Part shown: positions 233 through 20,214 of the stretch, in pieces
Layout of the letters: every line of letters starts with the position of its first letter
How positions within the stretch are numbered: the first letter of the stretch is position 1
Assembly: GCA_037137395.1 (NCBI GenBank)
Contig: JBAXKK010000044.1
Span: forward strand, 1 to 20,549
Reading direction: 5' to 3'
Source: Elusimicrobiota bacterium
Lineage (GTDB): Bacteria > Elusimicrobiota > Elusimicrobia > Elusimicrobiales > UBA9959
DNA: 20,549 nucleotides
Program-made: the position numbers and the translations under genes
The notes under the pieces: generated by a model
The model's input: only the letters and a program-made list of their open reading frames with translations
Database searches by the model: none
What the model was told of the DNA's origin: nothing

Positions 233-1618
233 ATGGACAAACTGAAGATTCTGGTAGTTGAAGATGAAAATCCGGCACAGGCGGTCATGGCGGCCCAGTT
301 GACAGGCCATACAGTGGACTTCGCAAAAGATAAAAAGACCGCCCAGAAAAAACTGGCTGGCGGTTCTTATGATCTATGCTTCCTGGACTTAATGCTGGGA
401 CTTGATGATGATTATTCGGGTTTGAAACTTATCGCGGACGCCAGATCAAGAGGGTTTTACTCCGTGGTTATGACAAGCTCGGATTCAGACGATATCATAA
501 ATAAGGCCTATGAACTCGGCTGTGACGATTTCTATATCAAAGGCAACGAAAAAGCAAATATCAGCGCCGTCATCGCCAAATACCTGCAGCGCGGGACAAG
601 CGGGAACCTTAACAAAGTCTTCTCCGAGGAGTTTATAACCGAAGACCCGGCAACGCGCGCCAACGTCACCGAAGCGCTTAAATACGCGGCCTCCGGCTCC
701 CCCATCCTTATTCTTGGCCCGACCGGCACAGGCAAAACCTGCCTGGCCCGGATAATACACAAGCATTCAGGGCGCGCTGGTGAATTCGTTTCCATGAACT
801 GTTCGGCCTATACCGAGGACCTCATGGAAGCGGAACTCTTCGGCTACCGGAAAGGCGCATTCACCGGAGCCAATGAAACCAGAAAAGGCCGGTTGCTCCA
901 GGCCAGTAACGGAACCTTATTTCTGGACGAGATAGGCTCCATGAGCCTTAACATGCAGACCAAGCTGCTTAAAGCCATTGAGGAGAAATCCTTTTACCCA
1001 CTTGGCTCCGATAAACCGGAACATTCCGATTTCAGAATCATCAGCGCCACTTTGGAAGACCTGCAAGCACTTATAACGCAAGGCAAGCTCAGGTTGGACT
1101 TCTTTCAGCGCATACACGGGTTTACCGTAACTTTGAAACCGCTGCGGGAACGCAAAGATGATATTTTCCCCCTCATACGGCAATTCACGCGCGGCGCGAG
1201 GCAGCTTTCATTCGCGCCGGACGCCAAAACTTTCATGCTTCAGTATGAATGGCCTGGCAATATACGGGAATTGAAGAAGCTGGTAGACCTGCTTGTTTCG
1301 GGCGCGGAAAACCGCGTCACGCTTGAAGCCATCCGTAAGCACCTTTCACAGGAACTTAAGCCCCTGCCGCCCGGCGGCTTCCTTACGGACGCGCAGTATA
1401 AATATGCCGTGGAAAACGGCCTGGACAGCGCGTCTGAACTGTTTACCTACGAGATAATCCGCCGCAATATGCAGGAATACAACAGTAACAAAAGCAAGGT
1501 AATGACCAATCTTAAGATCTCCACTAACCTGCTTTATGCCAGGTTAAAGAAATTCGAGCCAAACAAGGGGACTGAATCAGATGGAATCAAATCTTGTGGA
1601 AAGAAAACTGCTTCATAA
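233..1618 (+). CDS. NtrC-family sigma-54-dependent response regulator (REC + AAA+ + C-terminal HTH)
   Basis: N-terminal REC (ILVVEDE, FLDLML); Walker A GPTGTGKT; ELFGYRKGAFTGA with intact GAFTGA loop; Walker B LFLDEIG; WPGNIREL; Fis-like C-terminal helices. SD GGAGGGG precedes the ATG. Confidence 0.95.
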   Translation: MDKLKILVVEDENPAQAVMAAQLTGHTVDFAKDKKTAQKKLAGGSYDLCFLDLMLGLDDDYSGLKLIADARSRGFYSVVMTSSDSDDIINKAYELGCDDFYIKGNEKANISAVIAKYLQRGTSGNLNKVFSEEFITEDPATRANVTEALKYAASGSPILILGPTGTGKTCLARIIHKHSGRAGEFVSMNCSAYTEDLMEAELFGYRKGAFTGANETRKGRLLQASNGTLFLDEIGSMSLNMQTKLLKAIEEKSFYPLGSDKPEHSDFRIISATLEDLQALITQGKLRLDFFQRIHGFTVTLKPLRERKDDIFPLIRQFTRGARQLSFAPDAKTFMLQYEWPGNIRELKKLVDLLVSGAENRVTLEAIRKHLSQELKPLPPGGFLTDAQYKYAVENGLDSASELFTYEIIRRNMQEYNSNKSKVMTNLKISTNLLYARLKKFEPNKGTESDGIKSCGKKTAS

Positions 1619-1772
1619 AATCCGTTCGCAATCCGCAAGCCTTAAAACCATTGCGGAAATGTTCAAGACCGGCACCGCTGAGAAAAAGCTGGAATTGCTT
1701 GCCCTTATGAAGGAAGCAGGGCAGGATATAATGGATTGCCTGTCCCGGCTTGAGAAGGATTTAAAAGCCTAA
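1581..1772 (+). CDS. 63-aa helical microprotein resembling a stand-alone HisKA/DHp domain
   Basis: SD-like AAGGGG upstream; overlaps the regulator's 3' end. LLHKIRSQ...EKK...DI...LEK parallels the kinase's VAHDIRSP...EKK...DI...LEK. Confidence 0.65.
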   Translation: MESNLVERKLLHKIRSQSASLKTIAEMFKTGTAEKKLELLALMKEAGQDIMDCLSRLEKDLKA

Positions 1773-3925
1773 CTCCAGGGCGGAGTTTTGTCTATCACTT
1801 TAAGCCAGGGTAAGTGAGCGAAATCTTCCGGCATGTGGCCGGTCTCAAGCGTTATATTGTTATAACCTTTATTGTGCAAATCCTGCGCGATATTCTCGCC
1901 TTTAACGCCGTCCTCCTCGTCGTCCAGCTCTGAATCAAGATAAATAGGCGTCTCTTTGGGGAATTCTTCTATCCGGGCGAGAAAATCGGTCGGATTGTCG
2001 AAGATAACGAGCTTTACGCCTTTTGCTTCCGCGACTAATTCCCAACTCATGCGGGCCACTTTATCATCATCCACTAAAATGGCGTCCACCTGGCCGGGGA
2101 CAGAAACAGCTTCCGGTTTTGCATCAGACTTTTGAATCGTTATCGGAACCAAGCTTGCCAGGCCCTTGTGTATCATCCGCACTTTTAAGCGTTTGCATTC
2201 GTCAATTATGCGCTTCTCTTCGCAGCGACTGGTGACCAGTATTGTTTTACCACACAGGTTTAATTCCTCGGCAAGGCTCAAGCCGGTTTCTTTATAACCT
2301 ACAAGCTCATAGTCAAAAAGACAAACGGCGGTTTGAGCTTCGGCCGCATTGTTTCTTATCCATTCGCGCAATTTGTCCGGCTCGCTGAAATGAATGGCTT
2401 CAATACCGTGCTCCTTAATTCTTGCCGATTCAAACCGGCCATCCCATACCTGATGAATAGTGGCGTCATCATCCAAGACTACCACAGGCCGGCCCGGAGG
2501 AAGCTTAAGCACAGCCACAAATCCTTCCGGCGCCGACGCTTTGGGCAGTTTTATCGTAACCGTCGTCCCTTTCCCCAGCTCTGACGTTATGTTTAGGTTG
2601 CCGCCCCAGCTTTCCGCCGTAGTCCGCGCATGATACAAACCTAAGCCCGAACCGCCGGCTTTGCCGTGCGTCTCACCCCTTTGGCCCAGTTTGGCCAGGA
2701 TTTCAAGCGGAATTCCTTTGCCGTTGTCGGTTACTGTTAAAACGACATTTCCCGCATCCTGGCCTAACTCCACAGACACCTTACCTTTATCGCCCAATAC
2801 TTCAACGGCATTATTCACCAAATTAGACACCATGCGTCTGAATTCAACCGGCTGTATCCTAGCGAATAGGCCGTAGGATTCCTGTGTTAACTCAAAATCG
2901 ATATTGATGCCGGGCTTTGATTCAAATTGCAGGCGTTTCTCGGTGATAACCGGATCTATTATGCTTGAAAGCAGGCGCGTTGCCGACGATTCTTTGTTTT
3001 CGGCCGCGGGAGAACCATCAATCGCGACAGTTTTGGCCTGTTGCCGGTTTTTTTCAAGCAGATTATTGGCGATATCGTGTATGCGGTTAACGGCATGACG
3101 CACCATAACACGCTTCTTTTCCGGCAACTCCGCCGTATCTTTAAGCGCCACGTCCAACGCCACCAGGGGAGAACGTATGTCATGCGCCACCTGCGCGGCC
3201 AAATCTGATGTGGCTTTTGAAACGGCCAGTTCGCTCTCGAACTGAGCAGCTTGGCTAAGCGCTACGCTCATGCGGTCCGTCATCTGCGCGAAAGGCGTGC
3301 CAATGATGCCAGCAGGCAAGCTGTTGATGTGTTTTTTTATGGAATCACGGATTATATTGCTTTGACCGGAGGATGTTATAGCGTTTATCTCGTTAACAGA
3401 TCGCTCTATGGCTAATAAAGTCTGTATAGCACCAAGATTAGAAATAGCAAGCAAACCTAGGAAGAATAGAACCACGGTGATGAATAGGACATAATTTTGA
3501 GCAAACACCGAGGCATTAACGTCAACCAGATCTATAACATATTCAAGCCGTCCCAGCTCCGCGCCATTGGAAACAAAAGGCATATTATGAGCCATCTGTA
3601 CGCGGGGCCGGTCATAGAGATTACCGATTACAGCTTCTTTAAATATCCATTTACTGCCTTCAAACCCAATGGGACGGAAAGTGATGCGCTTTATATTGTC
3701 GTTCTTTATGCGCCACATTATACGTTGGGTCTCAAAAACATCGCCCTCAAGAAAAGCTTTTTCAAAATAGGCCGCATTCTGCCGCATCGCAGTCAGAAGC
3801 TTGTCATCGGCCACCCGTACTGCCGAGAATACCGAGAATATCTGCCAGAAAGCTACAAACGCCAATACTGACACGGCATAATGCCGCCAGTTATAAGCAA
3901 GTATCCGCACAAAAAATTTTACCAT
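1769..3925 (-). CDS. Membrane hybrid sensor histidine kinase with two C-terminal receiver-like domains
   Basis: Two hydrophobic TM segments flanking a short extracytoplasmic region; H-box VAHDIRSPL; N-box NLVNNA; DNGKG; GSGLGL; REC-like VVVLDDD..LFDYEL and ILVDDD..YLDSEL. Confidence 0.93.
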   Translation of the reverse strand: MVKFFVRILAYNWRHYAVSVLAFVAFWQIFSVFSAVRVADDKLLTAMRQNAAYFEKAFLEGDVFETQRIMWRIKNDNIKRITFRPIGFEGSKWIFKEAVIGNLYDRPRVQMAHNMPFVSNGAELGRLEYVIDLVDVNASVFAQNYVLFITVVLFFLGLLAISNLGAIQTLLAIERSVNEINAITSSGQSNIIRDSIKKHINSLPAGIIGTPFAQMTDRMSVALSQAAQFESELAVSKATSDLAAQVAHDIRSPLVALDVALKDTAELPEKKRVMVRHAVNRIHDIANNLLEKNRQQAKTVAIDGSPAAENKESSATRLLSSIIDPVITEKRLQFESKPGINIDFELTQESYGLFARIQPVEFRRMVSNLVNNAVEVLGDKGKVSVELGQDAGNVVLTVTDNGKGIPLEILAKLGQRGETHGKAGGSGLGLYHARTTAESWGGNLNITSELGKGTTVTIKLPKASAPEGFVAVLKLPPGRPVVVLDDDATIHQVWDGRFESARIKEHGIEAIHFSEPDKLREWIRNNAAEAQTAVCLFDYELVGYKETGLSLAEELNLCGKTILVTSRCEEKRIIDECKRLKVRMIHKGLASLVPITIQKSDAKPEAVSVPGQVDAILVDDDKVARMSWELVAEAKGVKLVIFDNPTDFLARIEEFPKETPIYLDSELDDEEDGVKGENIAQDLHNKGYNNITLETGHMPEDFAHLPWLKVIDKTPPWS

Positions 3926-5394
3926 CTAAACTCCGCCACCTCGGGATATTCCGTAAATCCTTTCCCGACAATTAAATTTTTAATATTCTCCGGGTAATAG
4001 AATTTTTCCACTTCCTGGAAAAGCGGCAAAACAGCGTATCTTTTCCCCAGCCCATCGGCGATCCTTTCAGCCATCCCCGCCGCAACAGGCCCCTCTTCCT
4101 CTTTAACCATCTTTTCGAGCAAAGCGGTCAACTCCGGCATATTAAAATCCACCAGACTGTCCTTCACAAGAAAATCCCTGAAAAAAATGTCATATTCGGG
4201 CTGCACAACGCTGAAATTTATCAAAACCATATCATATGGGTGCGGGCGGACAAAAAGCGTTTTAACGAGTTCCTGCACCTCATATTGCTTTATCTTTATT
4301 CGTATCCCGGTCTTACTGTGAAATTTTGCGGCAAACGCTTCCAGCGGGACCCGGCTTTCTTTCCTCCAATTCGCTAATATGAACGGTTTTAGCGTTTTGG
4401 CTCTTTCCAGGTAGGAATTACGGCATTCCTGCTGAGGCCTGCCGGAGTGCCCGCCGGGAATACCCATAGGTAGGAGCGTTTGAATATCATACAACTGTTT
4501 GGAATTAGGAAAAGCCGCCTGCCTGAATCCAGAGATATCGAAACAGTTATACAGAATCTCCCTGGATGTTTTATCCGGACTCGTCAAGATCAACCCCGAG
4601 GATTTTAACGGGACACTTTCAAACGATAAGAACCGTTCGGAAACCGTTTCCGGCAATACGCCATAAGGAACCCGGTTGAAATCGCTTAAATCTTTTCTCT
4701 CAAGGTTCCCTGAGAAATCCACATACTCCCATAGGCTTATTCGTTCATAACCCTTAGCGACAGATTTCTTCCGCTTCAAGACAATCTCGTTTTTTCCGAT
4801 GTTTTCTACCGAGAAAGGCCCCAAGCCCAGTTCCACATTCTCGCTGACTCCGAGAGTCGGCGCATTGACATACCGGGTCAGAAAATTCAAATAGCCTGTT
4901 TTCTTTTTTTTAAAGCTGACATCAAGACATTCTCCGGAGCGCACAATAGAAAAGTCAGGGGAGTATCTCCGTGTTACCGTCAGCAGGTATGTTTCGAAGT
5001 AGTCCAGAGAAAAGTTTTGCTTTTCATCGAATTTTTGACCCGTATCGGGGCAAAACACATATTTTGAGGAATCGACGCTTCGGGACCATTTTTTAAGGAT
5101 TCGCGATGAAAAGTTTTCACCGTCGTCCATCCTGAACAACGGCTCATGCGTCTGCTTGAGTATATAGAAAACCGCGTCCTCGTCAGCCAATGATGTAGAC
5201 ACTTTTTTTGGCAACCCGGGAAGATAAACGCCCCAAACTGGTGCCCCGGCTGCGGCCGAAGAATGCCCCGCCATAACCGAAAACATAACCATACAGGCGA
5301 CATATGCCCACGTTTTATTTTTCACGCTACTGAAATATATCGGCATAGTTTTTGCGGCCAGCCACGGCCGGCAAGCAGCATAAAATCGTATCAA
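3919..5394 (-). CDS. Family-5 (OppA/DppA-like) extracellular solute-binding protein; start uncertain
   Basis: Signal-peptide-like N-terminus; HEPLF..D...S.ILKKW, GLGPF.V, L.R and C-terminal VLPLF motifs typical of SBP_bac_5. Overlaps the kinase start; no ABC permease/ATPase nearby. Confidence 0.7.
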   Translation of the reverse strand: MIRFYAACRPWLAAKTMPIYFSSVKNKTWAYVACMVMFSVMAGHSSAAAGAPVWGVYLPGLPKKVSTSLADEDAVFYILKQTHEPLFRMDDGENFSSRILKKWSRSVDSSKYVFCPDTGQKFDEKQNFSLDYFETYLLTVTRRYSPDFSIVRSGECLDVSFKKKKTGYLNFLTRYVNAPTLGVSENVELGLGPFSVENIGKNEIVLKRKKSVAKGYERISLWEYVDFSGNLERKDLSDFNRVPYGVLPETVSERFLSFESVPLKSSGLILTSPDKTSREILYNCFDISGFRQAAFPNSKQLYDIQTLLPMGIPGGHSGRPQQECRNSYLERAKTLKPFILANWRKESRVPLEAFAAKFHSKTGIRIKIKQYEVQELVKTLFVRPHPYDMVLINFSVVQPEYDIFFRDFLVKDSLVDFNMPELTALLEKMVKEEEGPVAAGMAERIADGLGKRYAVLPLFQEVEKFYYPENIKNLIVGKGFTEYPEVAEFRW

Positions 5395-8261: not shown

Positions 8262-8444
8262 TTATTTTTCCGCATAGAATAACTGCGAGCCGGGAAAGGT
8301 TCCGGCACACGCATATTGCGCCGAGATCGTGACCTGCTGTTTACCGACATCCACGGCGACCAGATGTTGTGGCCTTGATAGAACCGCCAGTATAAATATG
8401 GCTGATATACCCACCAACACCGCTTTAATTGTTCTCCGTTTCAT
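8262..8444 (-). CDS. 60-aa secreted-type peptide (candidate precursor or signal peptide, module C)
   Basis: SD GGAG 5 nt before ATG; directly downstream of the conserved promoter; MKRR plus hydrophobic stretch; single Cys in YACAG. Confidence 0.8.
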   Translation of the reverse strand: MKRRTIKAVLVGISAIFILAVLSRPQHLVAVDVGKQQVTISAQYACAGTFPGSQLFYAEK

Positions 8445-8466: not shown

Positions 8467-8501
8467 TGCCTACGCCTCGTACGGAGCAATTTTTATAGCA
8501 G
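8467..8501 (-). promoter_or_regulatory. Variant -24/-12 promoter, module C
   Basis: Minus strand CTGCTATAAAAATTGCTCCGTACGAGGCGTAGGCA; near-identical copies at 12042-12076 and 16803-16837. Confidence 0.8.
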
Positions 8502-8577
8502 ATATCAAATTTAATTGCCTTCATTGGGAAAATTCGAAAATCCGGGATGCAAAGAATTTAAAAACCAGACAAAAACG

Positions 8578-8610
8578 CTTCGTTTTGAGATAACTATTCT
8601 CATTTTGACA
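8578..8610. promoter_or_regulatory. Tandem palindromic enhancer (UAS) pair, module C
   Basis: cttcgttttgaga (8578-8590) and tctcattttgaca (8598-8610), 20 bp apart; spacer taactat identical to the module A pair. Confidence 0.75.
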
Positions 8611-9331: not shown

Positions 9332-10580
9332 CGGCGACTATCCCCCTGGTCTGTTTCCCGGAGATAAACCCCGCCAGAACTATCCCAATAATAGCCGTGA
9401 ATGTGATAATCCCGATATGAACACTATGGGAAAATATTTTCTCGCCAAAAAACATCCCGATGGGGGCGGCGATAAGCACAACCATATCCACGGCTCCGAG
9501 CATTCTGCCCCTTATCTGCGAAGGCAGGCTGGTGACGAAATAACTGTAATACGGCTGAGTGACAGAATCAGACAACCCATACAGGAAATAAGCCGCGATT
9601 ATTGTCGCGACCGGTGCGATCGGGACAAGGATCATAATCAATGAAACGGCCGTGCCAAATAGGCCATAGATAAAGCATTTCGAGACACGGTGGCCATATT
9701 TCCCCACAATCACGAGGCCCAATACCTCGCCTATGGCGATAGTGCTTCGAAGAATCCCGAGATACGCCGCCCCATAGCCAGAATTCTGCGCGAGCAAATA
9801 CGGGAACACATTCGGGATATATCCATATATCAGATTCAAAAGGAACACATTCCCGCAAAATACCAGGACGAATTTGTTTGACAATATATTTGACTCAACA
9901 AATCCCCATGATTGCCGCCAGACTGCGATGTCCAGATACTTTGCCAAATTAAATGCCGGATGCTGTTTATGCGTCTCTTCAGCCGGGATATCGTTTTTTA
10001 AGCTGTAAAAAACCGCCGCGGAAAACAGAAAACTCGCCGCATCCAGAACGACAGCCCAGTGCATAGGCAAAAAAGCCACCATAATACCGGCCACAGCCGC
10101 GCCAAAAAAATTTATCGTCCTGATACTGCCGGATATTAAAGCCTGTGCCTTGATAAAATCGCTTGGCTTAACATTATCGGCAAAAAAAGCGCTGAAAGCG
10201 TTGCCGAACAAAGAACCAAGGAAAGTTTTGGCTATAAAAAGGAAAATAAAGAATACCAGGTATCCGGACCCAAGGTTATTGAATAATACGAACAACGAAA
10301 CAACAAAGGCTGAGCCGATATCGGTAAGCATAACTATCTTTCGCCGGCTGAAACTATCGGTTATCTTGCCGGAAAAAACGGCGAACATGGACTTCAGCAC
10401 AAAAGAACCGCCAAGGGCGTACACGATGACTTTAAGGTCCTTAAATCTGGCATACATGGCCCAGGTGACGAAGATATCAAAAAATATATCTCCGAAGACG
10501 GACACAATTCTGGCCGTCCACAGCTTAAGGATTATCTTGTTTTCAATTAGCCGCAGCATATCGATATAGAATTTTATCAA
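9321..10580 (-). CDS. MFS exporter (macrolide-efflux/DHA3-like); start may be ATG 10559
   Basis: About 12 hydrophobic segments; motif A GKITDSFSRRK; LW.A..VS.FGD N-terminus; RGR.LG near the C-terminus. Confidence 0.9.
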   Translation of the reverse strand: MIKFYIDMLRLIENKIILKLWTARIVSVFGDIFFDIFVTWAMYARFKDLKVIVYALGGSFVLKSMFAVFSGKITDSFSRRKIVMLTDIGSAFVVSLFVLFNNLGSGYLVFFIFLFIAKTFLGSLFGNAFSAFFADNVKPSDFIKAQALISGSIRTINFFGAAVAGIMVAFLPMHWAVVLDAASFLFSAAVFYSLKNDIPAEETHKQHPAFNLAKYLDIAVWRQSWGFVESNILSNKFVLVFCGNVFLLNLIYGYIPNVFPYLLAQNSGYGAAYLGILRSTIAIGEVLGLVIVGKYGHRVSKCFIYGLFGTAVSLIMILVPIAPVATIIAAYFLYGLSDSVTQPYYSYFVTSLPSQIRGRMLGAVDMVVLIAAPIGMFFGEKIFSHSVHIGIITFTAIIGIVLAGFISGKQTRGIVADVQ

Positions 10581-11757
10581 AGAAATACCAGAGAAGTTCT
10601 TTATAATACACGCAACTGCCGCCGCAAAAAGATTTCTGCGCTCTAAAATGCCCGGCGCGGCAGCCTCCGCCGCAAAGGAATTTTATCTTGCATTTCCCGC
10701 ACCCGGCCATCTCATCCACAAACGGTAACGCCCCGCAACTGCTTTTCCCCGGAATGAACGCCTTCTGCGAATCTTCTGTTAAAAGGCTGCCCATGTTGAA
10801 TTCTTTATCGCAAAGCTTGACACATGGATAAACATCGCCCTTTGGGGACACCGTTATGCTGTTTATCCCGGCCCCGCAGTGAAGGATAGGAAAGCCAGGC
10901 TTTCCAAAAAACATATTGTCGGAAATTTTCACGATGTCAAAAACCCCGAGGATATTTTTTTCCTCGGCAAACAATTTATCCATCAGGCTTTTGATCTGCC
11001 GCAACTCCGGCTTGTGGACATTATTGGCCATATTATCCTTGACGATAAAAAAGCCGGCCGCGATCTTCCTGTTTTTGAAATGCCGGTAAAATCCGAAGGC
11101 GTGCCGGATATTCTCCTTTGTGATAGTCTGCATTACCTTAAGCGGAATACCCGCCGCTTTTATTTTTTGGATATTGGCAAATACTCTTTGAAAAGAACCC
11201 TCGCTTCTGGTGAGCGAATTAACTTTTTCCGTCAGGCCGTCAAGACTTACCTGGATTTTCACTTTATTCTTGGAGCAAAACGCCAGGAGCTTATCCGGCA
11301 GCATCGTCCCGTTTGTCACTATTACTATCTCTTCGAAGGATTTTTTTACCGCGCTTTCCAGGATTCCAAGCAGATTCGGATGGCAAAAGGGCTCTCCGCC
11401 TATTAAGGTTAAGGACTTCACTCCCAGCTTTGCCAGCGATGCGAGTATCTTCTCATTATCATCCATTGATACATGACTTTTTTCCGAAGCCATCGCATAA
11501 CAGTATTTGCACTTAAGGTTACAATGATATGTGATGTTATAATAAGCAATTTTTATCAGGGCATCATTCCTGGCATACTCTTTGACCTCATCAACCGTTT
11601 TAAGCGCTTTCTGCTTTCCAAGTCTGGCTACGGCATCCGTTATCTTGGACTCATCATCGACACATGCCATAAACCGGTTTACGGCATCAACAACCACCAT
11701 TCCTTTTTGGCCGCTTTTTGAGTAGATAAAATATTTGTCGTTATATCGTTTGAGCAT
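10543..11757 (-). CDS. Radical SAM/SPASM peptide maturase (module B)
   Basis: CNLKCKYC, IGGEP, SLDG; SPASM CGAG..GDVYPC..CGKC..LCGGGC..C..C. Start reassigned to ATG 11757 because the longer ORF overlaps the precursor and hairpin. Confidence 0.93.
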   Translation of the reverse strand: MLKRYNDKYFIYSKSGQKGMVVVDAVNRFMACVDDESKITDAVARLGKQKALKTVDEVKEYARNDALIKIAYYNITYHCNLKCKYCYAMASEKSHVSMDDNEKILASLAKLGVKSLTLIGGEPFCHPNLLGILESAVKKSFEEIVIVTNGTMLPDKLLAFCSKNKVKIQVSLDGLTEKVNSLTRSEGSFQRVFANIQKIKAAGIPLKVMQTITKENIRHAFGFYRHFKNRKIAAGFFIVKDNMANNVHKPELRQIKSLMDKLFAEEKNILGVFDIVKISDNMFFGKPGFPILHCGAGINSITVSPKGDVYPCVKLCDKEFNMGSLLTEDSQKAFIPGKSSCGALPFVDEMAGCGKCKIKFLCGGGCRAGHFRAQKSFCGGSCVYYKELLWYFFDKILYRYAAAN

Positions 11758-11764
11758 ATTTTCA

Positions 11765-11798
11765 GGCCTCGCATGGCGCTTCCATGCCATGCGAGGCC
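11765..11798 (-). other. 13-bp perfect inverted repeat between precursor and maturase
   Basis: ggcctcgcatggc-N8-gccatgcgaggcc; no U-tract. Confidence 0.85.
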
Positions 11799-11810
11799 CG
11801 TCCCCTTTCC

Positions 11811-12017
11811 TTACAGAAACATGCAATAGCCGCTGGATGATTCCTGCACGCTTTCCGCTTCCATCTCCATCTCGCACAAGTCGCCTTTTTTCTGGGCGCT
11901 GCACATAAAGAGATTGAATTCATCCTTCTTCTTGGCGCTGCAGGCAAAAAACTCCACCCCTTTAGAACTCCGTGATCCGCACACACCCTTTTCGCTGCTT
12001 AATACTTTTTTGGTCAT
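11811..12017 (-). CDS. 68-aa Cys-containing RiPP precursor (module B)
   Basis: SD AAGGAG; directly after the conserved promoter; Cys at 13, 26, 39, 48 and 65; immediately upstream of the rSAM/SPASM gene. Confidence 0.85.
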   Translation of the reverse strand: MTKKVLSSEKGVCGSRSSKGVEFFACSAKKKDEFNLFMCSAQKKGDLCEMEMEAESVQESSSGYCMFL

Positions 12018-12041: not shown

Positions 12042-12076
12042 TGCCTACGCCCTCTACGGAGCAATTTTTATGGCAG
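12042..12076 (-). promoter_or_regulatory. Variant -24/-12 promoter, module B
   Basis: Minus strand CTGCCATAAAAATTGCTCCGTAGAGGGCGTAGGCA. Confidence 0.8.
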
Positions 12077-12163
12077 GGAGGATAAACAAACGGTTTCATG
12101 CAGTCCCATTGGAGAAATGAATGCTTGATGATATTTCAGGGATTTAAGAACAAACAAAAAGCC

Positions 12164-12241
12164 TCTCATTTTGATGTAAGCATTTTCATTTTGAAAATCC
12201 TCTCAATGAAGATTCGGCACGATTGCTTTCTCAAAATGAAA
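12164..12241. promoter_or_regulatory. Tandem palindromic enhancer (UAS) pair plus a third inverted copy, module B
   Basis: tctcattttgatg (12164-12176), tttcattttgaaa (12184-12196), tctcaaaatgaaa (12229-12241). Confidence 0.75.
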
Positions 12242-13870: not shown

Positions 13871-15175
13871 TCAAATACCGCCTTCAAACGCCGCCGGGTA
13901 TGTTTTTGCGAAATAGCCTTCTGCGTCGCTGTGTTTAAGCCTTAAAAATTCAGGAAAACCCGGGATCAATAGAACGGCCGGCGCTGACAGCAGGATAAGC
14001 CCGCCACCGGCCACAAGCGTCGCGCTCAGGCCTGCGAAAGATATAGCGCTTCCCGCCAGAATCACACCGGCGGGCACAAACATCTGGTTAAAGAACATTA
14101 CGAGCGACAAGACCCTTGAACGGTATTGGTCGGGGACCGCCAGCGTGTTCTGCGTCATAAGCGGGATGTTTATGATCACAAGACCGGCGCCTATAGCGAA
14201 CATTAGCAGGCATTTGGCGGCGGGCGGCGCCCCCGAGCCCAGCGTCAGCAACCCGGCGCCCATGACAGCGATGCCCGCCATGACCAATTGATCACCGTGA
14301 AATCTTCTTGCAAGTTCTCCCATAACCAAAGAGCCGGCGATAATCCCGGCGCTCACTCCGGATTTGAAAAGCCCCATAAGCCATACCGGCGTGGCGCCCG
14401 ACTCTTTGGCCAGCAGGGGAAAGGCTACGGTCATGGACGCGACCACAAAATTCAGAAAAGCGGCTAGTCCGCATATCCATAGCTGAAGAGGTATCCCGGC
14501 CACCAATTTGACGCCAGCTTTCAGTTCAGTCCGCCATACCGGGAAGCTGAACCGGTGATAGCACGCGCGCTGGCCGGAGTATCTCAGTCTGATAAACATA
14601 GTGGCGCCGGCGCCGGCGAAGTATGACAGCGCGTCACAAAAGAACGCTATTTTTATGCCGTATTTAGCGGAAACGAAGCCGCCCACTATTCCGCCGATAA
14701 TCGCCGCCGCCGCAGTCATGGAGTTGGTATGGCGGTATGCCTTCTGCAGGCTGTCAGGCCCCACCATCTGCGGAATTATGCTGTCCGCAACGCTTGAAAA
14801 AAGGGCGGAACCGGCCGAGGACAGGATAAAAAGCGTGATGAGGACCGGAAGACTGAACGAGTCCGTCCAAGCCAGCGCGCATAGCAATACGGAAAAAACG
14901 CCGCGCCAGATGTCGCTGATAATCGCCAGCCATTTCCTGGAATATTTATCTCCCAGCGGCCCGAAAAGAGGAAGGAGAAAAATGCGCACCAGGCTTACGG
15001 GGGCGAAAACAGCCGCTATCTGAACGGCCGAGCCTGTTTTTTCGGCTACCCACCACAGCACGGCTATCTCCGCGCAGGCGTCCCCCAAACCGGAAACAAA
15101 CTGCCCGGCCCGGAATAGCATAAAATCCGCCCCGCAGACGGAACGCGTCCCGCCGGAGCCGGAAGCGTCTTTCAT
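13871..15175 (-). CDS. MFS exporter (module A)
   Basis: About 12 TM segments; GQFVSGLGD; motif A GPLGDKYSRK; ATGA overlap with the rSAM stop. Confidence 0.9.
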   Translation of the reverse strand: MKDASGSGGTRSVCGADFMLFRAGQFVSGLGDACAEIAVLWWVAEKTGSAVQIAAVFAPVSLVRIFLLPLFGPLGDKYSRKWLAIISDIWRGVFSVLLCALAWTDSFSLPVLITLFILSSAGSALFSSVADSIIPQMVGPDSLQKAYRHTNSMTAAAAIIGGIVGGFVSAKYGIKIAFFCDALSYFAGAGATMFIRLRYSGQRACYHRFSFPVWRTELKAGVKLVAGIPLQLWICGLAAFLNFVVASMTVAFPLLAKESGATPVWLMGLFKSGVSAGIIAGSLVMGELARRFHGDQLVMAGIAVMGAGLLTLGSGAPPAAKCLLMFAIGAGLVIINIPLMTQNTLAVPDQYRSRVLSLVMFFNQMFVPAGVILAGSAISFAGLSATLVAGGGLILLSAPAVLLIPGFPEFLRLKHSDAEGYFAKTYPAAFEGGI

Positions 15176-16581
15176 AAAGAGCTCCCTGCGCCGGCTGGCT
15201 GGATGGCGGAAGCCTTATTTGCGGCGGCCCCGCGTCTCTTGTAATACAGATGCGTTTCAATCATCGCTTTTTCTATCGTGGCTTCGGTGTAGTAGCATTT
15301 TCCGGCTAAAAGCCGGTTTTCTCTATCCCTGGCACATCCACCCTGGCAGACGGGCAGGAATTTGCATGACATGCATTTGCTCTCTTTCGCGTCATAGATA
15401 TTTTCGTCCCACGCGCAGGTTTTATTAAAGCTCTCTATCGTCCCGTTTTCCAGCAATCTTCCGCATGCGGTGGAGGCATCGCCTATCAACGTGTCGCACT
15501 TGAAAACAAGCCCGTCGGCGCCTATTATCCACGAGTTCTTTTTCTGGGCGGAACACCAGCCCCCTATCGGATCCGGCACCGGCGCCGTTATCCTGCTCCT
15601 GGTATCCAGCTTGCCCAGCTTGTTGGCCGCGTTCAGGTAATAGTCCACCTGCTTTGAAAGCCCGTCCTCCATGCCGTAGATATCGCTTGCGATGGGCTGG
15701 ATATCGTCCCGGGAGGTGTCCATATTGGAAACCGCCCTGAAATATATTGAAAAACGCGGGTCCGACCCGAAAACCTTTTCATAATCCTCAAGCAACTCCC
15801 GGATCTCCGTATCCTGGCCTTTCATAAAGTTGACACGGATCTTAAAGGTAAAGCGCGCGCCCGCCCCGGCAGTTCGCTGGATGCCGCAGAGGTTCTTCCA
15901 GATAGTGTCAAAAGTCCCGCCCCCGTTGCGCAGAGATCGGACCTTGTCATGTGTTTTCCTGTTGCCGTCAAGTGTAACCTGGAAGAACGTGATACCGGAG
16001 TTAAGGTATTCCAGGAAAACCGGTGCGGACAACAAATAGCCGTTGGTGTATATTCCCGATGAGAACTTTATGCCGCTCCGGCCCAGCAGAAGACCGCGCA
16101 CTTCGCCCATGAACGTCAGAATGCCGTCTTTTTCCAGCGTGGGCTCCCCGCCGAACCAGTTTATCGCAAGCCCCTCCACACCGTTTATTTTCCCCGCGAT
16201 CAGGGCTAACGCCGCTTTATAGACCTCTTTTTTCATGGACATGCCCCTGCGATCGTATATAAAACAATAAGGGCACCTGAAATTACAGTTTTCAGACGGA
16301 AGCAGGGTCAGCCGGAGCTCCTTTTCACTGCGCGTAAAATCCATATATCTTTTTTTCACCTGCGCCGCTTCGTCAAAGCCGGCTTCAATCAGGAATCCCT
16401 GCTTACGCAGGTCATCTGCAAGCGGGGCATCCGAAGCGACATTGACCGAAGACAGCAGTTTGTCGCATTCGCACACGCGTTCACCCGAAAACGCCAGGAA
16501 AGCGCCGGTTCTTGTATTATAAAGAAGCAGGGAACCGTCTTCCGCACAGGTCTTGAATGTATATTTAGATATGTTAAGCAT
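15172..16581 (-). CDS. Radical SAM/SPASM peptide maturase with N-terminal RRE-like region (module A)
   Basis: SKY..LLLYNTRTG..L...GFL N-terminus; CNFRCPYC; WFGGEP; VTLDG; SPASM C..FKC..CMSCKFLPVCQGGC..C. Start reassigned to ATG 16581 (GGAG upstream). Confidence 0.93.
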   Translation of the reverse strand: MLNISKYTFKTCAEDGSLLLYNTRTGAFLAFSGERVCECDKLLSSVNVASDAPLADDLRKQGFLIEAGFDEAAQVKKRYMDFTRSEKELRLTLLPSENCNFRCPYCFIYDRRGMSMKKEVYKAALALIAGKINGVEGLAINWFGGEPTLEKDGILTFMGEVRGLLLGRSGIKFSSGIYTNGYLLSAPVFLEYLNSGITFFQVTLDGNRKTHDKVRSLRNGGGTFDTIWKNLCGIQRTAGAGARFTFKIRVNFMKGQDTEIRELLEDYEKVFGSDPRFSIYFRAVSNMDTSRDDIQPIASDIYGMEDGLSKQVDYYLNAANKLGKLDTRSRITAPVPDPIGGWCSAQKKNSWIIGADGLVFKCDTLIGDASTACGRLLENGTIESFNKTCAWDENIYDAKESKCMSCKFLPVCQGGCARDRENRLLAGKCYYTEATIEKAMIETHLYYKRRGAAANKASAIQPAGAGSSL

Positions 16582-16633
16582 AAGATTGCACGCTCCAGTG
16601 TCCTGTAATATGTAAATTACCGTTAAATTTGTC

Positions 16634-16666
16634 GGCAGCCGGGGCTGATATATTTCCCCGGCCGCC
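16634..16666 (-). other. 11-bp GC-rich stem-loop between precursor and maturase
   Basis: Transcript GGCGGCCGGGG-N11-CCCCGGCUGCC (one G-U pair), 5 nt after the precursor stop. Confidence 0.8.
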
Positions 16667-16671
16667 ACTTA

Positions 16672-16767
16672 CTATCTTACGCAGCATAGCCCGCAAACCC
16701 CTGCGCCATGATCCATCTCCTGCGCTTCCAGTTCTGTCTCCGAAACAGCAATTTTGTAAACTTCCAT
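16672..16767 (-). CDS. 31-aa RiPP precursor MEVYKIAVSETELEAQEMDHGAGVCGLCCVR (module A; not in ORF track)
   Basis: Translated by hand; SD GGAGG 8 nt before ATG; TAG at 16672-16674; acidic leader and Cys-rich C-terminus; lies between the promoter and the rSAM gene. Confidence 0.88.
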   Translation of the reverse strand: MEVYKIAVSETELEAQEMDHGAGVCGLCCVR

Positions 16768-16802: not shown

Positions 16803-16837
16803 TGCTTACACCCACTACGGAGCAATTTTCATGGCAG
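16803..16837 (-). promoter_or_regulatory. Variant -24/-12 promoter, module A
   Basis: Minus strand CTGCCATGAAAATTGCTCCGTAGTGGGTGTAAGCA. Confidence 0.8.
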
Positions 16838-16924
16838 ATGGATGCACCGGACGATTTTATGTGTTTCTATTGGGGAAATCAGGAAGTCAGCGGCGACAGG
16901 GGAGTGGGAAGCAAATGAAAATCA

Positions 16925-16957
16925 TCTCATTTCGAGATAACTATTTTCATTTTGAAA
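16925..16957. promoter_or_regulatory. Tandem palindromic enhancer (UAS) pair, module A
   Basis: tctcatttcgaga (16925-16937) and tttcattttgaaa (16945-16957), 20 bp apart. Confidence 0.75.
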
Positions 16958-16971
16958 GCCAACAGCGGGTC

Positions 16972-18030
16972 TTATAGATTGTTGGAAATATTCTTGGACA
17001 ATGATAAATCTTTGCGGTATTGCGCTACGGACTGGCGGGATAATTCTACGCCGTGACGGATTTTAAGCTCGGCGCGCAGCTTAGTGTTGTTCATATCGGG
17101 ATTTTCAACGGCTATGGCGTATAGCCGCTCTAAATTTATGGCTTTGGAACTGGGCAACAGAACCGACATAGGCGCTTCAGTGCCCCAGGGCATTTGTATG
17201 GATTTATTTGAAATAAGCCGATTAAGAACGCTGGGGTGGACTTCAAGTTCTGCGGCCAAAACTTTCTGCGGCAACGGCGCTCTGCGCACAGGTTCTCCGG
17301 TTAACAGGTAATCAGCCTGCCGCTCCATAACTATTTCTAGCGCGCGGTAAAGCGTGGATTTTCGCTTATCCGCCAGTTCCATGCGCCTTACGAGATTTTC
17401 CACGGCGGTTTGTTCAGAGGCAGGGAGACATTTCAACGCTTCTGAAAGTTTTTCCCCATCCACTTTATAACAGCCTTTCCATATTTCCCGATGAAAAAAC
17501 GCCAGGACAGGTTTACCGTTTTCAAGCTCTATGCCGGCCACGGCGCTGAACACTGTTGACGCTGGAGCTTCAGGTGCGCTTTCAAATTCAGCCTGTATGA
17601 ACGCGCGGTTAACGAAATCACGCAGGCGGGCGGCATCTTTGACGGTTATATCGCATTCCTCGGCGCGTTCCACATCGCTCATTACCGCGTCTTTCAGGAA
17701 GCAGGCTTCAAACTTTTCCTGGCCTATGCCTTGCATCAGACCAACCAGATCGCCTTTGCCGTCGGCCAGTTCCGGCAAGTCGCCAGCCGACATTTTAAGA
17801 CCGTAGCCGGCGTATTTCTTTGCGGCGTAACGAGCATTTGGGAATTCCGCCAGCCTGACAGCACCGGATGCTTTCAGTAATTGAAAAAAACGATTATCTT
17901 CTATTTTCTTGAGAAAACTCTCAAACTCTTCCTCAGACATCTCGGCCATCTGCGCTAACTTCATTGCGCCCATTGCCGCCGCTTTTGTTCTTGCGGAATG
18001 GCTAAAACCGAATTTATGGAATTTGCTCAT
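16972..18030 (-). CDS. Short divergent sigma-54 (RpoN-like) factor, ~352 aa
   Basis: Region I-like MKLAQMAEMSEEEFESFLKKIEDN; DBD RKSTL..IV..Q....G...PL....A.EL.VHPSVLNR...K....PWG; RpoN-box-like LSRQSVAQYRKDL. Start at ATG 18030 (SD AGGTGAGG). Confidence 0.85.
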   Translation of the reverse strand: MSKFHKFGFSHSARTKAAAMGAMKLAQMAEMSEEEFESFLKKIEDNRFFQLLKASGAVRLAEFPNARYAAKKYAGYGLKMSAGDLPELADGKGDLVGLMQGIGQEKFEACFLKDAVMSDVERAEECDITVKDAARLRDFVNRAFIQAEFESAPEAPASTVFSAVAGIELENGKPVLAFFHREIWKGCYKVDGEKLSEALKCLPASEQTAVENLVRRMELADKRKSTLYRALEIVMERQADYLLTGEPVRRAPLPQKVLAAELEVHPSVLNRLISNKSIQMPWGTEAPMSVLLPSSKAINLERLYAIAVENPDMNNTKLRAELKIRHGVELSRQSVAQYRKDLSLSKNISNNL

Positions 18031-18046
18031 AGCCTCACCTACGCAT

Positions 18047-18087
18047 ATTATAGCCGTTATGCAAAAATGGGGCAATTTTTACGGCAG
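18047..18087 (-). promoter_or_regulatory. Sigma-70 promoter of the sigma-54 paralog, overlapped by a variant -24/-12 site
   Basis: TTGCCC (18070-18075)-17 nt-TATAAT (18047-18052); CTGCCGTAAAAATTGCC at 18071-18087. Confidence 0.65.
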
Positions 18088-19692: not shown

Positions 19693-20214
19693 TTAGAAAA
19701 CGTAACCCATATCTACTGAGGCGCTTATGTCTATCGGCTTGCTCAACGGGGGATTGAGAGTTTTGGTGAGGAATTGGAGTATCCCTTCTGTTTTTCCCAT
19801 TATGGCCTCGTGAGCTAAAAGGGTAATGGTTTCGCCGGGTTTCCAGGGAGTGGTGTCGCTGGGGTGCGTAACGAGGGTGGCACCAACGGGTGATCCTAAA
19901 AGGTCTGTTATTGGGCCATTCTTACCCTTAACGGCGAAGTACACGTGAACGGGTTTTTTGAATGAATATTTAGTGTTGTTGGTGGCCCGTGCTGTTACGA
20001 GAACTTCTCCCACAAAGCCTATTCCCTTTTTATTCTTCCCTGTAAGGAGCAACTCTATCCCAAATGGTTTGCTGGTAGATTTTAGCTCAGCCTGCGCAAC
20101 TTTGTCCATCGAACTGTTTGTGAATGGATCGGCTTTTTTGCAGGACGTGCATAACGTCGTTGCGACCGACAAAATTATCCCGATTAAATAATACCGCGTT
20201 GTTTTTGAGTTCAT
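19693..20214 (-). CDS. Hypothetical lipoprotein
   Basis: Basic N-terminus, hydrophobic stretch, lipobox-like LCTS-C; no recognisable domain. Confidence 0.65.
   Translation of the reverse strand: MNSKTTRYYLIGIILSVATTLCTSCKKADPFTNSSMDKVAQAELKSTSKPFGIELLLTGKNKKGIGFVGEVLVTARATNNTKYSFKKPVHVYFAVKGKNGPITDLLGSPVGATLVTHPSDTTPWKPGETITLLAHEAIMGKTEGILQFLTKTLNPPLSKPIDISASVDMGYVF

Follow-up and report, generated by a model that had tools for sequence, protein, structure and literature searches.

The window analysed here is a 20,549-nucleotide (nt) stretch of DNA, contig C44 of a 2.70-Mb metagenome-assembled genome of an Elusimicrobiota bacterium (G000; 174 contigs, completeness 98.9%, contamination 7.7%). 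It contains a compact gene of the sigma-54 family, an activator of the sigma-54-interacting type and genes that appear to have the make-up of a ribosomal-peptide modification cluster. These are three radical-SAM genes (two with SPASM-type matches), a double methyltransferase, a GNAT protein, two MFS transporters and a beta-lactamase-fold protein. All three radical-SAM genes score below NCBIfam equivalog cut-offs, and small Cys-containing open reading frames (ORFs) lie directly 3' of promoter elements of the -24/-12 type. The sigma factor has a glutamine in its RpoN box at the position of E. coli R456, and the promoter elements have GC in place of GG at -24. Here we report that this RpoN-box change covaries with the -24 base change across homologues. 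The whole body of evidence is computational.

In sigma-54, R455 and R456 read CTGGC, and H377, S379 and R383 read the GC at -12 (PMC9770992). Translation of the sigma gene (Table 1) confirmed the SRQSVAQYR box, the HPSVLNR helix-turn-helix (HTH) and the length of 352 amino acids (aa) that a sequence-only reading of the window had given. The protein contains ...LEVHPSVLNRLISNK... and ...GVELSRQSVAQYRKDL..., with the RpoN box LSRQSVAQYR at residues 330 to 339 and VHPSVLNRLISNK as the HTH. A canonical RpoN box has both arginines, R455 and R456. In the window protein Q333 stands at the R456 position; the first and last R of the box are retained, as is the Y, and the box of the sister clade is SRRSVAQYR. 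In the HTH, VHPSVLNR, the H, S and R responsible for reading GC at -12 are present, in line with the unchanged TTGC of the promoters.

Sigma54_DBD (PF04552) was the sole Pfam match in the protein (45.7 bits against a cut-off of 22.8, residues 218-345), and it was matched in 34/34 family members. The score against TIGR02395, the curated full-length rpoN model, was 42.7 bits, below the cut-off of 277.35. A profile of the 34 family members matched 20 sigma-54 sequences in the PDB (E 1.6e-12 to 9e-6) and aligned sRRsvaqyr to ARRTVAKYR, residues 454-462, of E. coli. A full-length AlphaFold2 (AF2) model had a predicted local distance difference test score (pLDDT) of 76.5, with values of 84-92 at residues 21-60 and 54-85 across the core-binding region. 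The top 30 Foldseek matches of this model in the PDB were all sigma-54 chains. VIA-align aligned 230 residues with 8f1k_M (Z 14.2; model 14-352 against chain 11-477), so that the N-terminal helix was included (model 14 onward against chain 11 onward), and 229 residues with the Aquifex sigma-N chain 5ui5_I (model 112-350 against chain 103-398). The sequence-only reading had taken the protein for a divergent, short sigma-54 and had proposed a check of its fold. The DBD match, the PDB profile matches and the end-to-end match of the AF2 model to solved sigma-54 bear this out, and we regard the protein on these grounds as a divergent, short sigma-54 homologue. A search of a large protein collection returned 302 homologues at E<=0.001. 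The best 120 of the 302 are ~320-390 aa long, and all taxon-named ones among these come from Elusimicrobia. As far as these homologues indicate, the protein belongs to a sigma-54 family of compact members (~350 aa) that occurs only in Elusimicrobiota. A 2011 survey listed Elusimicrobium minutum among the bacteria without sigma-54 (PMC3162934), and our literature search found no description of the compact Elusimicrobia family or of a natural variant at R456.

The promoter motif of the window, CTGCYRTNAAAATTGCYCC, occurs there in four copies with exact -24/-12 spacing, all on the minus strand and all intergenic. In its 19-mer form, CTGCYRTNNNNNTTGCYCC, it has four copies in the genome of 2,695,951 bases, all four within the window. 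From each element it is 41-54 nt to a downstream start codon, which has a Shine-Dalgarno sequence; the distance for the sigma gene, ~41 nt, is taken from coordinates alone. The canonical promoter definition asks for GG at -24 and GC at -12 with fixed spacing (TGGCAC-N5-TTGC). Here the spacing and the TTGC are exact and three copies have GC, with TGCTAT in the fourth. The repeats with sigma-54 spacing and GC for GG that the sequence-only reading had described were thus found again as four copies, one of them TGCTAT. The extended 19-mer is the sole informative form of the motif. In its loose form, TGCCRTN5TTGC with one mismatch, it showed no enrichment there (5 found against 3.7 expected; 31/100 shuffles of the window reached 5), and TGGCAC-N5-TTGC with two mismatches occurred at chance level (19 found against 18.9 expected). 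An inverted repeat, CTGCC...GGCAG, around the motif was considered as an operator palindrome and rejected, since the 8483 and 18069 copies lack it.

Homologues with an SRRS box commonly have TGGCAT-N5-TTGCTCT before the sigma gene. With the SRQS box (the window and its nearest relatives), the element is CTGCCRT-N5-TTGCYCC. The covariation sample comprised the window (WIN) and 79 related loci (labelled L) from species-representative genomes; the Elusimicrobiota genomes compared are labelled G. The SRQS sources are the window, L010, L011 and L012, with five SRQS proteins in total. A scan of the window and all 79 loci for TGNNRY-[A-rich N5]-TTGC gave 62 TGGC sites, all at SRRS-type loci. It also gave 10 TGCC sites and a single TGCT site, and these were confined to the four SRQS sources. 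No TGGC site was found in the four SRQS sources and no TGCC site in the 75 other loci; the same scan gave four other odd sites. When hexamers at N6-N5-TTGC were counted without bias, TGCCAT came out on top at SRQS loci (9 sites, 4/4 loci) and TGGCAT at SRRS loci of at least 59% identity (61 sites, 33/42 loci). CGGCAT and TGGCAC ranked first at more distant SRRS loci. The second base of the dinucleotide is C at 11/11 SRQS-type sites and G at 63/63 SRRS-type sites; the search patterns in part predetermined this position. C also stands immediately before TG in 10/11 SRQS-type sites.

The same association was seen at the level of genomes. Among 401 genomes of the phylum, at least two TGCC-type sites were found only in G000 (3), G213 (4), G312 (2) and G338 (2). 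These are exactly the genomes with a sigma of at least 88% identity among the 61 family genomes searched. Ten other genomes had single TGCCGTCAAAATTGCCC-type matches, level with the reversed-pattern control (9 in 8 genomes). The covariation of RpoN box and upstream motif that the sequence-only reading had proposed to look for across homologues was therefore a clean partition with no crossovers. That reading had also held that the R>Q, T>S and K>Q changes of the box co-evolved with GG>GC. The R>Q part stands, as this change tracks the base change. T>S and K>Q are common to the whole Elusimicrobial family and occur beside TGGCAT promoters, so these two changes coexist with GG promoters.

A second, independent covariation was sought in deeper clades of the family (L072-L087, including L077), where the hexamer count gave no clear promoter motif. 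In these clades L, C, S or A stands at the R455 position in L072, L073, L075 and L081-L087 (LS[LCSA]RS), one protein, L077, has P at the R456 position (LSRPS), and the sigma genes sit within operons.

A quick maximum-likelihood IQ-TREE tree of 81 proteins placed the five SRQS proteins in one clade (Shimodaira-Hasegawa-like approximate likelihood ratio test, SH-aLRT, 100), nested within SRRS and sister to L013, L014 and L016. Only six positions are fixed in 5/5 SRQS proteins and absent from 42/42 SRRS proteins (at least 59% identity). Four are variable sites or V>I, one is S/T>N at residue 314 and one is R333Q. The R333Q site is R in 42/42 SRRS proteins and is the sole non-conservative change at an otherwise invariant site among the six. 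As judged from the tree and the alignment, R>Q is derived and specific to the SRQS subclade. The SRQS gene is intact in four genomes from three genera and 88-92% conserved, and there are hints that the SRQS cluster was transferred between genera.

The sequence-only reading had pictured the pair as insulated from a housekeeping RpoN. This part found no support in that form. No canonical rpoN was found in G000, and in a survey of the phylum 1/151 sampled genomes had an rpoN above the TIGR02395 cut-off, with 43 others having compact forms only. The factor from which the pair would be insulated is the sister compact sigma-54 with the SRRS box. Within the genus of the window the sigma-54 copy number ranges from 0 to 2, and no sigma-54 homologue at all was found in G054 of this genus. 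In G000 itself no other sigma-54 homologue was found apart from a 3' remnant at C24:15007-15078 (locus L090:972-1100). This short open frame begins right after a stop codon and reads ...ALEKRHGVKLSRRSIAQYRKELSLGGKGNRAL; it is apparently the C-terminal tail of an SRRS-type compact sigma-54, left from a deleted paralogue. Family-type GG promoters were likewise absent from G000, as 0/18 matches to YGGCAY-N5-TTGC had the A-rich spacer and TTGCTC.

The other three SRQS genomes, G151, G152 and G153 (aliases of G213, G338 and G312, respectively), each have an SRQS sigma and at least one SRRS-type sigma. Both kinds of promoter are present in them (4+1, 2+2 and 2+2 sites; 0 in the reversed control), with the TGCC sites near the SRQS sigma at L010 to L012. 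In G151 each sigma shares its contig with a bacterial enhancer-binding protein (bEBP) of its own; the one on the SRQS contig lies 14 kb from the sigma gene, much as in the window, and the other adjoins the SRRS gene.

The bEBP of the window is the only strong Sigma54_activat match in G000; the next-best matches scored 32.7, 24.1 and 23.5 bits. A hybrid histidine kinase encoded nearby is its presumed sensor partner. Repeats of TCRAAATGARA, mostly in pairs 20 nt apart, lie about 90-130 nt upstream of three peptide promoters in the window, where enhancers of bEBPs usually sit. Six copies were found in the window against 0.13 expected (0/100 shuffles reached six), with ten in the whole genome. None was found upstream of the sigma gene. 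Across the four SRQS sources the repeats lie upstream of 9/11 TGCC promoters. They are likely enhancer sites for the bEBP, and activation of the TGCC promoters by this neighbouring bEBP would fit the arrangement. With one sigma-54, one activator, enhancer-like repeats and four promoters, all in a radical-SAM peptide cluster, the G000 system appears self-contained. The features are listed in Table 1.

Table 1. Features of the sigma-54 system and its peptide operons in the window
Feature	Coordinates	Strand	Remarks
Compact sigma-54-family gene	16972..18030	-	352 aa, ATG start at 18030; RpoN box SRQSVAQYR
-24/-12-type element CTGCCGTAAAAATTGCCCC	18069..18087	-	Upstream of the sigma gene itself; same arrangement in L010
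Sigma-70-like promoter TTGCCC-17-TATAAT	18047..18075	-	10/12 consensus matches; overlaps the -12 element of the sigma-gene motif
TCRAAATGARA pair, 20 nt apart	16925..16955	-	~90-120 nt upstream of the 16819-16837 element
-24/-12-type element CTGCCATGAAAATTGCTCC	16819..16837	-	54 nt upstream of the 31-aa Cys-rich peptide ORF
31-aa ORF MEVYK...GAGVCGLCCVR, precursor-like, Cys-rich	16672..16767	-	Followed by a radical SAM/SPASM gene
Radical SAM/SPASM peptide-maturase-like gene	15172..16668	-	Best match TIGR04463, 189.9 bits, below the cut-off of 525
Three TCRAAATGARA repeats (two direct, one inverted)	12164..12241 (12164-12194, 12231-12241)		~90-165 nt upstream of the 12058-12076 element
-24/-12-type element CTGCCATAAAAATTGCTCC	12058..12076	-	43 nt upstream of the 68-aa ORF
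68-aa Cys-containing ORF	11811..12017	-	3' of the promoter; next comes a radical SAM/SPASM gene (10543-11904)
Enhancer-like repeat TCAAAATGAGA	8598..8608	-	~100 nt upstream of the 8483-8501 element
-24/-12-type element CTGCTATAAAAATTGCTCC, variant TGCTAT	8483..8501	-	41 nt upstream of the 60-aa ORF
60-aa ORF, hydrophobic N-terminus	8262..8444	-	3' of the 8483-8501 element
Response-regulator bEBP (REC, sigma-54-interaction AAA+ domain with GAFTGA, lid)	233..1618	+	191.2 bits
Hybrid histidine kinase	1769..3925	-	HATPase_c 86 bits; weak HisKA and REC matches

The peptide ORFs recur at related loci. A near-identical 31-aa peptide lies 3' of the motif in L011, and the L010 homologue of the 60-aa peptide is preceded by TGCCAT. 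L012 has two SRQS sigma genes (606-1661 and 10001-11056), 88% identical to that of the window and 9.4 kb apart on one contig; each has a TGCCAT promoter downstream of it and then a small peptide ORF, different for each. Autoregulation of the window sigma gene through its own -24/-12-type element is possible. The TATAAT before this gene is retained in L010 as well, and the sigma-70-like promoter to which it belongs may give basal sigma expression, the basal supply that a self-activating sigma needs.

A further box, YCCCAATRG..(N)..CAT.AAA, is conserved on the minus strand at ~16858-16876, 12098-12115 and 8515-8530 and in the L010-L012 equivalents. At the peptide promoters it precedes the -24 element by 18-40 nt; the sigma-gene promoter lacks it. 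Could it be a site for a bending protein or a second regulator? Elsewhere in the window, two minus-strand ORFs, 3919-5394 (491 aa; between the kinase gene and the beta-lactamase-fold gene) and 19693-20214 (173 aa), had no Pfam match.

Working in E. coli, Liu et al. (Nucleic Acids Res 2025; PMC12096077) randomised residues R455/R456 as well as the hexamer at -24. R456Y, R456M, R456W and R456F preferred GC over GG, R456H preferred GA and R456L preferred GT, each being orthogonal to the wild type. Their article states that R456 is 100% conserved, with no other residue found there, and asks why evolution tried no alternatives (PMC12096077).

We consider it probable that the window encodes a compact Elusimicrobial sigma-54 in which the R456 equivalent became Q and the promoters went from GG to GC, forming a private circuit with the bEBP, its enhancers and the peptide operons. 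The proposed sequence of events would be as follows. In the SRQS subclade glutamine would have replaced the RpoN-box arginine (R456 in E. coli) by which the second G of GG at -24 is read, and all promoters served by the SRQS sigma would have taken the matching G>C change, from TGGCAT-N5-TTGC to TGCCAT-N5-TTGC. The hybrid kinase would phosphorylate the response-regulator bEBP, which would bind the TCRAAATGARA repeats upstream of three promoters and remodel closed complexes of RNA polymerase and the SRQS sigma at TGCC-type promoters. This remodelling would switch on the three small-peptide/radical-SAM operons. The sigma gene would draw on its own TGCC element and on the overlapping sigma-70-like promoter for basal supply. 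By analogy with the engineered variants the Q form would prefer GC. The SRQS sigma would also be orthogonal to, and insulated from, its SRRS paralogue. The window sigma is predicted to bind core RNA polymerase and to depend on a bEBP and ATP for open-complex formation, with indirect support from the GAFTGA bEBP of the window, the only one in G000.

Several observations weigh against this proposal, and they bear differently on the alternatives. One alternative is that the Q form is relaxed rather than switched. It would read both GG and GC, or the SRRS paralogue would read GC too, so that the pair is not orthogonal and the G>C change was merely tolerated and copied with a promoter cassette. The published GC-preferring variants are Y, M, W and F, not Q. 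A plasmid for R456Q was made, and no partner promoter for R456Q is reported (PMC12096077). R456Q is also not among the seven variants given there that almost lost activity on the wild-type promoter (PMC12096077), and because of this the Q form may still read GG. The TGCC promoters share long flanks and are paralogous cassettes, so the 11 TGCC sites are not independent events. R>Q arose once in the tree, and with a single evolutionary event the association cannot be tested statistically. The site at 8483-8501 has TGCTAT in place of TGCCAT. The position 3 nt after TTGC also differs, being C in 11/11 TGCC-type and 7/63 TGGC-type sites (T in 54), and no protein change matching this TTGCTC-C versus TTGCTC-T difference was identified. 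Relaxed reading nevertheless sits poorly with the strict partition of TGGC and TGCC sites between the 4 SRQS sources and the 75 other loci, and with the C kept at 11/11 sites in four genomes of three genera. It also sits poorly with the genomes that have both sigma types, as these also have both promoter types; co-residence here is per bin, because the genomes are metagenome bins (7.7% contamination in G000). On balance we think relaxed specificity unlikely.

The other two alternatives depart further from a private sigma-54 circuit. The protein might not be a sigma at all but a transcription factor derived from the DNA-binding half of sigma-54, acting as an ordinary activator or repressor at -24/-12-like sites. 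In the proposed profile check against Sigma54_AID, CBD and DBD, the DBD was matched as described, and Sigma54_AID (PF00309) and Sigma54_CBD (PF04963) matched 0/34 family members, even at E<=5. Comparison by hhalign with the only canonical rpoN of the phylum (G111) aligned the C-terminal part alone (profile residues 227-360), the protein is short, and its N-terminal half folded alone gave a poor AF2 model (pLDDT 58.3). The DNA-binding half is secure, and the N-terminal functions rest on fold likeness and genomic context; given the poor model of the isolated N-terminal half, it is the moderate-confidence full-length model that underlies core binding and activator contact. That model, however, matches sigma-54 from residue 14 to 352, and its top 30 structural matches are all sigma-54. 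If the protein were not a sigma, the only bEBP of G000, with GAFTGA intact, would be without a sigma-54 partner. Enhancer-like repeats at about -100 and a fixed distance from motif to start also fit sigma-54 promoters, and we judge a plain transcription factor improbable. Still less credible, and in our view very improbable, is coincidence, in which R>Q would be neutral or inactivating and the TGCC elements would either answer to another factor or not be promoters. The single origin of R>Q leaves room for it. Against it stand the intact, 88-92% conserved SRQS gene in four genomes, the lack in G000 of any other sigma-54 homologue except the 3' remnant, and the Rfam scan, in which no family matched the window. 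The changed base is, moreover, the one re-specified by the engineered R456 variants (PMC12096077).

Like canonical sigma-54 (E. coli and K. pneumoniae, 477 aa; Aquifex aeolicus, 398 aa; PDB 8F1K, 7QV9, 5UI5 and 5NWT), the window sigma has the extra-long helix, the HTH with its H, S and R, the RpoN domain and the overall fold, together with a bipartite promoter of fixed spacing and a GAFTGA bEBP encoded nearby. Unlike canonical sigma-54, it has 352 aa, no sequence-detectable AID or CBD and a score far below the TIGR02395 cut-off; its box is SRQSVAQYR rather than ARRTVAKYR and its promoters have TGCCAT rather than TGGCAC. It also appears to serve a single gene cluster in G000, unlike the broad regulon of the canonical factor. 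Multiple rpoN paralogues occur in single genomes of Proteobacteria (Bradyrhizobium, Rhodobacter, Ralstonia), where they differ in regulation or activator use and are not known to depart from the canonical RpoN box or from GG promoters. The sister compact sigma-54 with the SRRS box (for example L013, L014, L016 and L042) is 60-80% identical to the window sigma and matches it in length and domain picture, and its promoters share the A-rich spacer and TTGCTC. It appears to drive small peptides, radical-SAM genes and secreted proteins, and often its own gene. It differs from the window sigma in the R at its R456 position and in its promoters, whose -24 element is TGGCAT, in keeping with the GG promoter definition. 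With the engineered R456 variants the window pair shares the residue position that is changed and the promoter base that is re-specified. The engineered design likewise pairs a variant sigma, variant promoters and a bEBP (PMC12096077). The window pair differs from it in being natural, in having Q as the residue and in its compact, divergent sigma-54 background.

A broader reading, which we regard as a real possibility and would not yet call probable, is that sigma and promoters here form a natural pair with mutual insulation. In a recent duplicate of the compact sigma-54 the R456 equivalent would have changed to Q as its promoters changed from GG to GC. The resulting private channel would travel with its activator and enhancer as a control cassette for peptide clusters, at 88-92% identity across three genera of one family, and would work even in a genome without another sigma-54. 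Sigma-54 biology takes both the GG at -24 and the pair of RpoN-box arginines to be invariant, and the question of why evolution left alternatives to R456 unexplored would be answered by a natural Q variant whose promoters have the matching GC. Promoter-prediction tools that require GG would miss the whole TGCC regulon. If the reading is true, the window offers a pre-tested orthogonal set of sigma, promoter, activator and enhancer for synthetic biology, and it shows a biosynthetic cluster carrying its own insulated transcription channel. For the family, compact and without a recognisable AID or CBD, the question raised is how little of sigma-54 suffices with RNA polymerase. For sigma-54 at large, the supposedly frozen GG/R456 code would have been rewritten in nature.

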